The translations under genes were made by a program, and so were the position numbers. From Eledone cirrhosa (taxonomy: Eukaryota): DNA of 64,000 nt. A model generated the notes under the pieces. It was not told where the DNA came from and did no database searches. It worked only from the letters and a program-made list of their open reading frames with translations. Where the stretch lies: positions 41,478,001-41,542,000 of the forward strand of contig OZ024746.1 in assembly GCA_964016885.1 (NCBI GenBank), written 5' to 3'. Below are positions 4,584-63,625 of the stretch, one piece after another (position 1 is the stretch's first letter; each line of letters begins with the position of its first letter).

Positions 4584-4661
4584 GTCTCTACTGCAGTTTC
4601 ATTAGGAAAATAACAAAACTCTGAGTAGAGTATCGCGAGAAATCCTAAATCATCAGGAGAC
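4584..4661 (-). ncRNA. Type I hammerhead ribozyme, minimal palindromic helix III (PLE/retrozyme type)
   Basis: Minus strand: GUCUC-CUGAUGA-U UUAGGA..UCCUAA U-GAAA-CUGCAG-UA-GAGAC. Helix I is 5 bp, helix II is 6 bp, helix III is the palindrome ACUGCAGU, triplet GUA, and the core is intact. Confidence 0.8.
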
Positions 4662-4909
4662 TTTCTCTGTTCAGAAGTAAAATTCAAAACAAGAATTCCC
4701 GTTCGTGTTCAGTGAAAATTTCGAATGAAATGACTGTCACGTGACAACTGACCAACAGGAGGATAGTAAAGTGGATGGTGGCAGGCAATGTGCTACTAAA
4801 AAGTAGTTTGGGACTCACACACACACACACACACACACACACACACATATATATATATATATATATATATATATATATATATATATATATATGTATATAT
4901 GTGAGTATT

Positions 4910-5076
4910 GGGTTCAATCAGGGGTAACCACAGTAAGTAAGGTACTCAATACATTAGTAGAGTATGTACAACATTTTATACAGAAACAGCTTCTCCAGGG
5001 CTAGAACTGTTTCATTCGAAGGATATCATCAGAAAGACCCCGATGAAGTCCTGTAGAAGCCATTTCTATATTAAAT
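4910..5076 (-). mobile_element. PLE pseudo-LTR-like remnant, family B, with mutated hammerhead and short inverted copy
   Basis: Minus strand reads CTGATGA..GAAACAGttctagccCTG(G)A gaagc. An inverted partial copy gtcctgtagaagccatttctata lies at about 5048-5070. Homologous to the copies at 38761, 46885 and 50060. Confidence 0.7.
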
Positions 5077-5097
5077 TATATATACATATATGGACAT

Positions 5098-5480
5098 ACA
5101 TACATGATGGAAGCAGCTTGATTTTGAAATTTGCCATCACATGATTCTTTTTCACACATGGGTATCATGACTATGACTTTTTAGCCCTGGCAAGGAGTTA
5201 CAATCCTTTCTTCATCTGCTGCAATGAAAGAAAAGGAATGGCTTTTCTTCGCTATGGCCAGCCATGTCCATGCATCACACATGACAGATGTTTAAATCAA
5301 GTGATGCCGCTGCTTGAAGCTTTTTTAAGTGAAGAAAGACCTTGCACTGGACCAAACTGACAGGTATCCAAAAAGAATAACAGGTCAACATCATTGGTTA
5401 CTACTGAGTTGTATGTTTTATATCAGGGTTTTCCTTCTCTTAGAATGATGGTCTAACATGGACTAGGGGTCTCTCACTCC
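5098..5480 (-). mobile_element. Degraded non-autonomous retroelement with (TATG)n tail
   Basis: Colinear with 56655-56985: shared catacatgatgg..tgccatc start and tatatcag-g..ccttctc block. Confidence 0.5.
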
Positions 5481-5619
5481 TGGTGGGCTAACTGCACACT
5501 CAGGTACCAAACCAAGTATTTTCATGTTCTTATGCATACATCTATACATCCATACATGCATACATACATATATACATGTTTTTTTTTTGTATATATATAA
5601 ATAAATATATTTATATATC

Positions 5620-6265
5620 AATCATTTACCGTCCACTTTTTCTGTTAGCAAGAGTTGGATGGGTCCTCACTGACCATGTTTGTACTGAAGCTAGGCCACT
5701 GGCCTCTGAGACGGCGGTTTGCATTTCTCTTAGATATGGTTCCCAGTTCTACCAAGTGAATTTTATTATGTTGGTACCAGTACTAGAGAGGTTGTCATGA
5801 CTTTGACACAACTGGGGGGGGGGGGTCTTCCCAGCTCTTTGTTTGGCAAACTTTTTATGGTTGAATGCCCTTCCTATCATCAATCACTTCACAGCCTGTA
5901 CTTGGTTTGTTTTCATGTAGATAACCAACACTAAGGAGGTTTTCATGTCTTTGACATAACTGGAGGCTCCTTCCAGCCCTTTGTTTGGCCAGTTTTCTAT
6001 GGCTGGATGCCCTTCCTATTAGCAATCACTTCACAGCAAGTACTGGATTTGTTTTCATGTAAATTACCAAGACTAGGGAAGTTTTCATGTCTTTGACATA
6101 ACTAGAGGGTCCTCCCAATCCTATATTTGGCAAGCTTTCTATGGTTGGATGCTTTCCTATTGCCAACCACTTTACAGCATGTACTGGGTATCCTGTAGAT
6201 CACCAACACTAGGAAGGTTGTCATATCCTTGACATAACTGAAGAGGCCTTCCAACCCTATATTTG
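5620..6265 (-). mobile_element. SINE-like element with about 3.5 tandem copies of a ~140-bp module
   Basis: Units start near 5782, 5930, 6072 and 6208 (actag-gaggttgtcatg-ctttgaca-aact..ggatgcccttcct). An RTE-type tail lies near 5620-5665. Related sequence occurs at 7140-7390 (+) and 20960-21290 (+). Confidence 0.7.
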
Positions 6266-6577
6266 TTTTATATATGAGTAAAACACCAACATGATCCTAT
6301 CTCTAGGTATTTTCCACAGAAAACATTTTATCTTTACAGGAAACTAACCAAATGCTGTTAAATCAAGAAATAATGCAGATAAAATTCACATACACTATTT
6401 AATCTTCTATACTGTATCTCTGCATGTTAGAGGGTGCAACTAAAATGGATAATGTTAGGAATGCATATTGTAAGAAGCGACTAAAATGGATGGTGTTAGG
6501 AAGGAGATTTAACTGTAAAAACAGCCTCGCTAAAATACTGTTGAGCGCATGCTAACATGGAAAAGCAAATGTAGTAG

Positions 6578-6683
6578 CGATGATGATTATTATTATAATG
6601 ATGATGGTGAGGATGATGATTATAATGAGAATGATGATTATGATGATGATGATAATGATGATGATGATGATAATGATAATTAT
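6578..6683. repeat. Degenerate (ATG)n microsatellite
   Basis: Direct reading. It produces the His-rich ORF 6496-6687. Confidence 0.9.
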
Positions 6684-60720: not shown

Positions 60721-60737
60721 TAGTAATAATAATATTA

Positions 60738-60914
60738 ATTGTTTCTACTTTTGGCACAAGGCCAGCAATTATTCCAGTGCATTACTGGTACTTTATTTTA
60801 TCGACCCCGTAAGGATGAAAGGCAAAGTTAACCTTGACGGGATTTGAACTCAGACCGTAAAGGGACGTAACTCTGCTAGAAAGCATGGCGTCCGATCCTC
60901 TACCAATACTGCCA
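60738..60914 (-). mobile_element. Young group 2 SINE
   Basis: Matches 24113-24297, slightly 5'-truncated. Confidence 0.9.
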
Positions 60915-60965
60915 GGCCACAAGCTATTACCCCCAAAACTGCTTAATGAATAATAATAATAATAA

Positions 60966-61147
60966 TGGTTTCTTATATAGGCACAAGGCCAGCAATTTTG
61001 GGGGAGGGAAAAGTCGATTAAATCGACCCCAGTGCATGACTGGTACTTTATTTTATCGTCCCCGTAGGGATGAAAGGCAAAGTTAACCTCGGCGGGATTT
61101 GAACTCAGGATGGCAAGGGTCGTAACTCTATGCGTGAAAGCATGGCC
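60966..61147 (-). mobile_element. Group 2 SINE, 5'-truncated, in (AAT)n
   Basis: Matches 45265-45484 and is flanked by (AAT)n. Confidence 0.9.
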
Positions 61148-61650
61148 AATAATAATAATAATAATAATAATTCTGATAGAAAACTAATGTTCAGAAATTG
61201 GTCATGCTACTATGACCTCTGACTTACTGAGCAAATCCAAATCAAATGGTTCCTTATTCAACATCTAAATGAGCCAATGAGGGTGCCTCATAGTGGTTGT
61301 TCAACCTGCTAGAAATAGCAACCAAATCCATCTTTAAGATCACCTCTTACCGTCTCAAATAAAGATGACCACATTGAATAAGGTAGCCCATGATAAAACA
61401 CACACACATATATATGCACACACAAACATACAGATATACACACACATACAGACCGAAAAATATATGTATGTGGGTGTATTTAAATATATATAAACAAGTA
61501 TGTATGTATGTGTGTGTGTAATTCTTATTAGCAGGGAAACATACAGTAAATGATGATGATAAGAATGTGTGTGCGTGCGTGTGCGCATGAAGTAGTACTA
61601 GAAAATTCCCCAAGCAAGCCTTAGAAAAATACAGTAAATAATATATTTCA

Positions 61651-61995
61651 CATCATCATCATCATCATTTCATTTTACGTCCGCTTTTCCCTGCTTGCAA
61701 GGGTGGGACGGGAACTGATTCTGGCTTGATTTCTACAGCTGGATGCCCTTCCTAACACCAACCTCATTTACAGTGAGTGCTGGGTGCTTTTTTGCTGTGG
61801 CACCTCCACGTTCACTTTGCAGTGGAATCATATGGACCCCAGTCCCTATCATCTCATTTCTACAGCTGAGTAAACTGGAGCAATGTGAAATAAAGTGTCT
61901 TGCTCAAGGAAACAACACATCACCCGGTCTGAGAATTGAACTCACAACCTTTCGATTGCAAGGCCAATGCTCTAACCACTAAGCCATGTGCCTCC
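61651..61995 (-). mobile_element. Young composite group 1 SINE
   Basis: Near-identical to 561-900. Confidence 0.93.
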
Positions 61996-63349
61996 ATATT
62001 AGTTATATTTCAAAACAGTCTTTTATGGGAATGTGTTCAGTGATCTCAGTGCATCTCTTATATATACCAACATCACTACAGATGTCTTCTTCCTAAATAC
62101 ACACACACATATATATAAGCACACACTCTGTCTTTTGAGGCATTTTTGTCCATTGCTGTCATTGACAATGTTTGGCTGTTTTAACAGCTGTTCTAGCAAT
62201 GAGTTTTCTCATTTTTCTATGAATTCAAATACACACACACACACACACACACATATATATATGTGAAGGAGTCAGGATCCCGACGGCTGAACTCCTGCCA
62301 TTTCAACTGCTACTTCCGAACGGAGCTCAGCCATCAAGGTCCCAGCTCCTTCTTATTACCACACTCTACTAACCCAAGTATCAAGTACTCAGGTGAGTAA
62401 TAGTCTAACAGATTTTTATTGCATCCATTCTGATATATATATATATACAGAGAGAGAGAGAGAAAGAGAGAGAGAAAGTAGTTTTAATAGTACATGTTGA
62501 GTATAAAGCATACCACTAACCATGGTGATAAGTTGACACAATCTCCACAGTAATAGACATGTTTGTGTAAGTTGTTGACTGCAATGAGTGTACTCTTGTT
62601 TCACTTGATTGGGAGATGTTCAAGTAATGAAATGAATAAGGTTTCTCCTTTGTATATATATACCTGTCTTTGTGTTTGCCAGTCACAGTAAGGATAAGAA
62701 AAGAGAAATAAAAGGTGATGTATATATAGAAGTGTGAGGTATTGTTCAGTAAACAATGGAGATTATATCACTGACTATTCTTTATGGAAATGCTTCTGCC
62801 ATTATCTCTGCAGGGCATAGTTGAGATATGATGTTCAAATGAGGGTGTAGAGTTTGCTACTTTCATTTATTTGTTTGTTTTTGTTTAGTTTTTTTTTTAT
62901 ATGTATATTTATCAAATATACATATAAAATGCTTGGATTTTGAGTTATGGCTTTTGATGTTTAATTAATTTGTTTTAAATCATTTGAACAATTTAAAAAA
63001 AATAAACTACAATGTAAGTCAACTTTCTTACCAAGGAATGTAATTGGTTTTGTAATGAATTTTGAAGGAGGCTGTTTTCTTTTAAATGGATTATAAACAA
63101 TTAGATATATATTATGATATATATATTATATCTCCTCATTGGTTCAATCTGATAATTGGTTCCTTTCCTTTACTACACACACACATGTATGTGTGTGTGA
63201 TGAGTATATATATATATATATATATATATATATATATACACACATATTCATTTTATACAGGCTAAGTAGTGAGACTATTTAAACTCTAGTTGAGCATTAA
63301 GTACTCCTTTCTCTTGGCCATCAACTACATATTGATATATATATATATA

Positions 63350-63625
63350 GTGATAGAACACTGGTGGGTTATATCTGCAGGAGTAGAGCACTCAGTCCAT
63401 GGCACGAGTTTGGTAGAGGTTGTTCCACAACAGTTAATACAAATTGTTCTTGGAAATGATGTATTAACTGTTGTGGAACTACCTCTCTCTTTCGGATCTA
63501 GCTGTTGAAACAGCCAGAGCTCAGCCGTCGGGGTCCTGACTCTATTCCTATTACCCATTCTACTACCCCTAAGTATTGAGTACTCTGGTGCATTATGGCC
63601 CACCTGGTTCCTTACCACACTTTCT
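63350..63625. mobile_element. Two abutting pseudo-LTR-like remnants
   Basis: Inverted repeat agaggt-gttccacaacagttaataca and tgtattaactgttgtggaac-acctct (about 63415-63487), followed by a family E copy on the plus strand. Confidence 0.6.

Follow-up and report, generated by a model that had tools for sequence, protein, structure and literature searches.

Hammerhead-bearing remnants of Penelope-like elements and a candidate non-autonomous retrozyme in a 64-kb stretch of the Eledone cirrhosa genome

In this study, hammerhead ribozyme motifs were analysed in a 64,000-nt stretch of the Eledone cirrhosa genome (contig OZ024746.1 of assembly GCA_964016885.1, positions 41,478,001 to 41,542,000; G000:C6:41478001-41542000 in our coordinates; genome 3.0 Gb; GC 34%), referred to below as the window. 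TA/CA microsatellites and repeats resembling short interspersed elements (SINEs) are abundant in it, and hammerhead-related sites belonging to families A to G, plus a further site, H, were catalogued (Table 1). The motifs are very probably type-I hammerhead folds at the pseudo-long terminal repeats (pseudo-LTRs) of Penelope-like elements (PLEs), present as short and mostly decayed copies, together with one protein-free family, A, with a 455-nt unit.

Hammerhead motifs in the window

Motifs were searched for with a descriptor comprising a CUGANGA or UUGANAA core, a helix II of at least 3 pairs, GAAA, helix III, NUH and helix I, with a stem score of at least 22. In a first version, the basal pair of helix II had to be standard, and families A and C were missed; this requirement was relaxed and the descriptor was then calibrated on shuffled sequence. 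Four intact type-I motifs were detected at 3 sites (core starts in Table 1), compared with 0.12 ± 0.37 motifs (maximum 2) in 60 local dinucleotide shuffles of the window, in which 4 was never reached. This indicates that the hammerheads noticed in a preliminary description of the window are real.

The preliminary description had listed 14 sites as hammerhead-bearing pseudo-LTR remnants. The coordinates and family grouping of all 14 were correct and such remnants are indeed present, but an intact motif was found at only 3 of the sites, the other 11 failing the descriptor. Two of the motifs described as decayed, at 38086 and 55145, carry G12 → A, whereas the core at 51302 is undecayed, being the U3-A8 variant of its family with a weak helix I. 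Adjacency to (TA)n was borne out, as 11 of the 14 sites end within 30 nt of a (TA)n tract with n of at least 4, versus 16% of random segments; an inverted self-copy, said to occur in most sites, was overstated for the window, being clear in 5 (4910, 38761, 40846, 51961, and 62265). The window is free of PLE open reading frames (ORFs), tblastn with 23 PLE peptides from the same genome giving 0 matches. The reported lack of a reverse transcriptase (RT)/GIY-YIG ORF is true of the window, but it is local, the genome having many PLE ORFs. An Rfam scan of the window returned no hammerhead family and only microsatellite and tRNA-like matches among the matches listed (150 of 178).

Motif density and fold in the genome

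The genome was sampled in 79 blocks, each 10 kb long and placed at round coordinates on large contigs only (39 on C1-C4; 789,800 bases). These blocks contained 97 hammerhead motifs in 30 clusters, with 1-3 motifs in five shuffles, supporting the very large genome-wide population of ribozyme remnants suggested earlier. The density was 123 motifs per Mb (bootstrap 86-167); merging motifs at most 400 nt apart left 99 insertions per Mb, and the extrapolated genome load is likely 3.7 × 10^5 motifs (2.6-5.0) and 3.0 × 10^5 insertions. A stricter subset (C3-G8 core, paired helix II base, helix I of at least 3) held 47 motifs, corresponding to 1.8 × 10^5 genome-wide.

An unusual density had been proposed for the window, but its motif count was ordinary. 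The sampled blocks gave a median of 7 motifs per 64 kb, the 4 in the window being lower (P(≥4) = 0.87), and 27 blocks on the chromosome of the window gave 15 motifs, or 3.6 per 64 kb, equal to the window rate. Remnants of families B and E together numbered 8 in the window versus a mean of 4.0 (P(≥8) = 0.056). A hotspot was ruled out, the density being equal to that of the chromosome and of the genome as a whole, in which the window does not stand out.

Positions 3 and 8 of the core covary in the 79 blocks, with 77 C-G and 20 U-A combinations versus 2 C-A and 2 U-G (shuffles 0-1 each), so that the mismatched combinations are near the shuffle level. Helix III is palindromic in 67 of the 97 motifs, and the predicted cleavage triplets are mainly GUA, AUA, GUC, and GUU. 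The basal pair of helix II is non-standard in 30 of the 97 (U.U in 17; families A, B, and G). Type-I core boxes in three-helix order are also present in copies of B, E, F, and G outside the window. These features reflect selection in the source elements, not in individual copies, and most scattered copies are likely inert.

A tandem array of 11 hammerheads with a 310-nt period was also observed on C3 (L299, G000:C3:190000001-190010000, minus strand, locus 281-3381), where it runs into an assembly gap. The six monomers compared were identical, and the circular fold had a z of -4.7; judged by these features, it is a classic non-LTR retrozyme array.

Families linked to Penelope-like ORFs

GIY-YIG ORFs with RT upstream are numerous in the genome (the best 150 of 10,596 candidates were scored). 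Nine of 30 GIY-YIG loci matched the 51302 element (family G) downstream of the ORF, at up to 95%, and the ORF linker of this family, CX4CxxC, is Neptune-like. For family E, the first 30 loci all seemingly started near the ribozyme; two upstream walks led first to the lost U3-A8 core, which has a long helix II, and then, about 1 kb further, to an ORF end. This ORF end (L236 and L247) carries a CxCX5C linker and CxxC and CxH around conserved E and N, which are Hydra-clade motifs. The four E copies in the window are without a CUGANGA-type core because the core lies upstream, in the lost part; family E as a core-less or new ribozyme variant was ruled out by the upstream U3-A8 core. Family C is young, its top genome matches being 95-98% alike, and has a long untranslated region (UTR). 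Its ORF end lies 1.25 kb upstream in L223, showing CxxC, E, N, and CxH, with the CxCX5C linker position outside the visible part; an inverted RT piece was found in L217. Families C, E, and G are thus assigned by sequence as 3′ ends of RT/GIY-YIG PLEs, 5′-truncated at the ribozyme, C and E being putative members of the Hydra clade and G putatively Neptune-type, as called from ORF-end motifs without a tree.

Linkage to RT/GIY-YIG ORFs, which the preliminary description had proposed checking, was therefore direct for C, E, and G, and was found via close relatives for B and D. When the 3′ part of family B was used as the query, 19 of 34 rows started at positions 1-9 (the rows including the window copy and a few spurious AT-rich matches). 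Close relatives of B continue upstream, and an inverted Hydra-like RT piece adjoins the copy in L322 (48% to the C-type RT). Two of the 40 matches listed for the upstream UTR of the related B2 subfamily have an RT match, among the 150 listed, 1.0 and 1.9 kb upstream, where 0.004 were expected. No tandem arrays of B were seen among the exact-match places listed (100 of 112). Family D was compared via copies in retrieved loci, as the AT-rich D query matched nothing genome-wide, the window itself included. Two D-type loci, L191 and L339, are collinear from ORF through UTR to ribozyme (78-83%), and the L191 ORF matches RVT_1 and GIY-YIG. Families B and D are putatively PLE 3′ ends, traced through close relatives. 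The shared sequence of family F extends at least 150 nt upstream, and no ORF was reached in that span.

The 57-aa Hydra-like RT piece at L322:3470-3640 (minus strand) occurs at 100% identity in at least 20 places among the 150 listed of 28,506 first-look candidates, and open frames of up to 996 aa are present at L322-type RT matches; the identical copies point to recent PLE activity. Copies of the B2 upstream UTR lie 8.5 kb apart in tandem (G000:C2:16676505 and 16685045) and 12.2 kb apart in inverted orientation (C8:30531611/30543820 and 31876388/31888645), a spacing which suggests long full-length elements.

Family A as a closed unit

In family A, some copies are followed at the 3′ end by the same DNA that in other copies precedes the ribozyme, i.e. 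the copies are circularly permuted. When 60 loci were mapped on one natural unit, a closed map of 455-464 nt was obtained, in which the 5′ ends are spread out and the 3′ ends fall at two fixed positions, separated by 140 nt and each at a TA-like word. Approximately 11 of 30 loci pass the second end site, all into the same unit, and the rest end there. At least 9 distinct copies are longer than one unit, the longest being about 1.5 units, and a single locus, L272 (= L118), contains a partial dimer, its two ribozymes being spaced by 426 nt. Among the 60 mapped loci, no long tandem arrays were seen and none (0/60) had a PLE ORF at the matching place. The copies vary enough to form subtypes.

Because copies that run beyond the end site re-enter the same unit, and none an ORF, family A is considered a non-autonomous replicon. 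It is assigned as a dispersed non-coding retrozyme with one predicted type-I hammerhead per unit and with PLE insertion marks, and, as judged from its copies, it alone among the window families is a demonstrated non-autonomous unit; it likely borrows PLE enzymes. The short non-autonomous elements envisaged in the preliminary description hence correspond to family A, while most of the others are truncated ends of autonomous PLEs.

Insertion anatomy and proposed mechanism

Inverted arms were present in 44 of 60 loci for family B, 24 of 30 for E, 6 of 30 for A, and 6 of 25 for C. Each family has two fixed 3′ ends (with and without a tail); (TA)n targets and truncation points clustered at the ribozyme were also seen. 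In inverted copies, one arm has the tail and one is without it, and the arms are joined at or just past the ribozyme. Truncation at the 5′ end, inverted copies, tails, (TA)n targets, and Hydra motifs have been described for PLEs (Craig et al. 2021, PMC8557442). For a lizard PLE, AT-rich DNA was reported to be cut and extended on both strands in vitro, two internal RT starts defining the tail; its ribozyme needs protein and is dispensable for insertion (Frangieh et al. 2024, PMC11167929).

By analogy to the lizard case, the PLE protein would cut (TA)n, prime on both strands and start at two internal RNA sites. Synthesis of cDNA would usually end at the structured ribozyme, or the RNA 5′ end may lie there, and two stopped cDNAs may join or fold back to give a fold-back insertion. 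Aborted reverse transcription of this kind would leave thousands of short ends per full copy, with later decay. For family A, the template would be a circular molecule or a head-to-tail multimer, cleaved by the ribozyme of the family itself, and a PLE enzyme acting in trans would read through it beyond the unit length.

Alternative explanations

Several observations weigh against this picture. The predicted monomer folds of the window copies are mostly not hammerhead (z -2.6 to +1.0). For family A, the circular fold is strong in the L261 unit (z -3.6) and weak in the L256 unit (z -0.7), and covariation in helix II is thin (9 A-U, 5 G-C, 4 other). The B subfamily of the window shares no upstream DNA in 60 loci and may be a separate short element; the ORF link of B comes through relatives about 80-87% alike, and the window D is 75-82% like the ORF-linked D type. 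No parent ORF was traced for F or H, the clade calls come from ORF ends, and the sequences read for B, C, and E cover parts of elements.

Some of these points bear on the idea that the majority of families are SINE-like ribozyme retroelements in their own right, non-autonomous and about 140 nt long, with fixed ends of their own, instead of truncated ends of long PLEs. Most B copies start at helix I, with the 60 targeted loci lacking shared upstream DNA, family A is truly ORF-less, and remnants far outnumber ORFs, a PLE ORF piece being present in 14 of the 79 blocks. However, E looked alike in its first 30 loci and yet upstream walking reached an ORF, and C, G, the D type, and the B relatives also extend upstream, so that we regard this idea as improbable. 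Family A itself could descend from one PLE tandem, or a few, with internal deletions, copied as linear RNA rather than from a circle or multimer of its own unit. A partial tandem of a deleted PLE would yield the same permuted map, and the lack of any long A array, with the longest copy at about 1.5 units, fits such an origin. On the other hand, the re-entry of every copy past the tail site into the unit (about 11 of 30), together with the subtypes, points to the unit itself as the replicon. The linear origin differs from the circular or multimeric template favoured here only in whether a circle forms, and it is a serious, if rather doubtful, possibility.

The window could also be a host locus, e.g. 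an intron, that keeps ribozymes to cut pre-mRNA or make circular RNA, as an intact motif is kept at three sites. This is very hard to reconcile with a density equal to the chromosome and genome background, with 11 of 14 sites broken, with intact motifs on both strands (2 + 2), and with the D pair being a fold-back; a fold-back copy is unlikely to cut host transcripts, because its ribozyme would pair with its own complement. A Pfam scan of 146 of the 230 unmasked window frames of at least 45 aa and of 4 other long frames gave a single match, the zf-RVT of a long interspersed element (LINE); no host-gene domain was thus seen in the 150 frames scanned, a result with which an intron is still compatible. 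We consider a host locus of this kind highly improbable, and PLE remnants plus the protein-free family A remain the favoured explanation.

Features of the window

The sites are listed in Table 1; the second F fragment was absent from the preliminary list.

Table 1. Hammerhead-related sites in the window
Feature	Position	Strand	Description
Family A copy	4524..4810	-	About 290 nt of the ORF-less permuted unit (455-464 nt), 5′-truncated; (TA)n at the 3′ end
Family A hammerhead	4584..4661	-	Intact type-I motif, core start 4656; helix I of 5 bp, helix II long (U.U at base), helix III palindromic; boxes CUGAUGA and GAAA; triplet GUA, cleavage predicted between 4589 and 4588
Family B copy	4905..5083	-	Short inverted arm (5047-5083); core kept, cleavage-site U lost
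Family F 3′ end	38061..38200	-	Minimal hammerhead, G12 → A
Family B copy	38756..38925	-	Inverted arm; A6 and G12 lost
Family E fragment	38934..38989	+	Tailless, flanked by TA tracts; core absent
Family C	40700..41040	+	Tail arm in inverted orientation at 40700-40816; hammerhead of the body intact, core 40857, cleavage predicted after 40912; 3′ end locally duplicated in tandem; 3′ end of putative Hydra-type PLE
Family E copy	41045..41181	-	Truncated within loop II; core absent; 3′ end of putative Hydra-type PLE
Family B fragment	46885..46949	-	Tailless; C3 and helix I missing
Family B copy	50064..50190	-	Diverged; core kept, helices I and III broken
Family G	51200..51520	+	3′ end of putative Neptune-type PLE; U3-A8 hammerhead at about 51302-51335, weak helix I
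Family D fold-back	51795..52100	.	Two intact hammerheads (cores 51901, minus, and 51969, plus) in 117-nt arms, 99% complementary; tail on right arm
Family F fragment, second	52591..52661	-	More decayed
Site H	55139..55190	+	Hammerhead-like fold, G12 → A; no homolog among retrieved genome sequences
Family E subfamily copy	62265..62420	+	Inverted arm; core absent
Family E copy	63491..63630	+	Truncated within loop II; core absent; 3′ end at (TA)n

An apparent bare 3′ tip of family B followed by (CA)n occupies 4808-4847 and adjoins the 5′ end of the family A copy, forming a nested insertion. Imperfect palindromes of 70-105 nt lie at 51678-51786, 59852-59947, and 63415-63486, two of them adjoining ribozyme elements. 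A large inverted repeat with microsatellite-rich arms, 94-98% in pieces, covers positions 1-4330; parts of it match, at 70-80%, the DNA between two tandem PLE ORFs in L197, and it is possibly an inverted PLE UTR remnant. A young SINE-like family has copies at 580-901, 47070-47405, and 61661-61996, which are 96-97% identical and give weak Rfam tRNA matches. LINE fragments were found at 59976-60647 (minus strand), the zf-RVT match, and at 33299-33983, without a Pfam match; the latter is presumably RTE-like.

Comparison with known systems

Minimal type-I hammerheads in metazoan PLE pseudo-LTRs were described by Cervera and De la Pena (2014, PMC4209133), with palindromic helix III as the mark of dimer-active PLE hammerheads. 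The present motifs share with them the type-I fold, the short or palindromic helix III, the many heterogeneous families per genome, the predominance of single dispersed motifs from truncated PLEs, the opposite-strand pairs, and the U3-A8 variant, reported there in Schistosoma with about 1,300 matches. They differ in helix II, for which one unpaired base and a G10.1-C11.1 pair were reported, as opposed to the long loops of many motifs and the non-standard basal pair of 30 of the 97 found here. Published counts in that paper are about 2,000 plus 1,300 in Schistosoma, 4,000 in coelacanth, and 9,000 in Xenopus, i.e. 2,000-9,000 per genome, versus the 1.8-3.7 × 10^5 estimated here; more than 6,000 in coral, about 5,000 in mussel, and, as the highest of the counts compared here, up to 120,000 retrozyme copies in axolotl (genome 28 Gb) were given later (PMC7229834). 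As descriptors differ between studies, these comparisons are rough.

With the Hydra and Neptune PLEs of PMC8557442, the present families share the Hydra marks (C and E), the CX4CxxC linker (G), truncation at the 5′ end, copies in inverted orientation, tails, and insertion at (TA)n. Hydra elements are described there as generally shorter than 3 kb, whereas the 3′ UTRs of C and E measure 1.0-1.25 kb, and the tails are about 65-140 nt here versus 30-40 nt. Two internal RT starts, copies with and without the tail, extension on both strands, and AT-rich targets are shared with Poseidon_Ac (PMC11167929), a lizard Poseidon element whose mechanism is applied here by inference.

Family A resembles the non-LTR retrozymes (Cervera and de la Pena 2020, PMC7229834), for which an origin from PLE pseudo-LTRs has been reported (Li, Clavereau and Pollet, bioRxiv 10.64898/2026.07.22.740005), in being non-coding, with one type-I hammerhead per unit, in occurring as monomers and a partial dimer, and in coexisting with PLEs. 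Those units are about 170-400 nt, whereas the A unit is 455-464 nt and dispersed, no long arrays having been seen, and it has a PLE insertion signature, namely a pair of fixed 3′ ends spaced by 140 nt, (TA)n, and inverted arms. A cephalopod hammerhead census was not found in the literature searched, although motifs or families from cephalopods may be included in the supplements to PMC4209133 and PMC8557442; PLEs of Octopus vulgaris are listed in PMC13282606, whose available text does not mention hammerheads or ribozymes.

Minimal PLE hammerheads, including U3-A8, and non-LTR retrozymes are thus already known, from 2014 and 2020, respectively; the genome-wide scale and the anatomy of family A look new. 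The work of Lunse et al. in RNA Biol in 2017 reportedly yielded about 150,000 variants across all genomes, among which cephalopods may be included. We tentatively propose that this genome may carry the densest animal hammerhead load on record (about 100 per Mb, 2-5 × 10^5, at least 30 families, some still amplifying) and, jointly, that family A may be a dispersed circular-RNA retrozyme inserted by PLE machinery, with two fixed RT starts and a closed 455-nt template; the combined proposal is plausible rather than probable.

Biological significance

In a 3-Gb genome with an estimated 1.8-3.7 × 10^5 motifs, several would be encountered by any long transcript, and such numbers make intron strand bias and tolerance of self-cleavage testable. 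The U3-A8 core, the U.U base of helix II, and the long loops offer a natural mutational series for hammerhead biochemistry. The mover of animal retrozymes has so far been argued from co-occurrence and pseudo-LTR similarity. In family A, the marks of PLE insertion are found on a closed unit devoid of ORFs, and this unit could readily serve as the substrate in a PLE assay in vitro; if the proposal is true, family A would provide sequence-level evidence that PLE enzymes move animal retrozymes.

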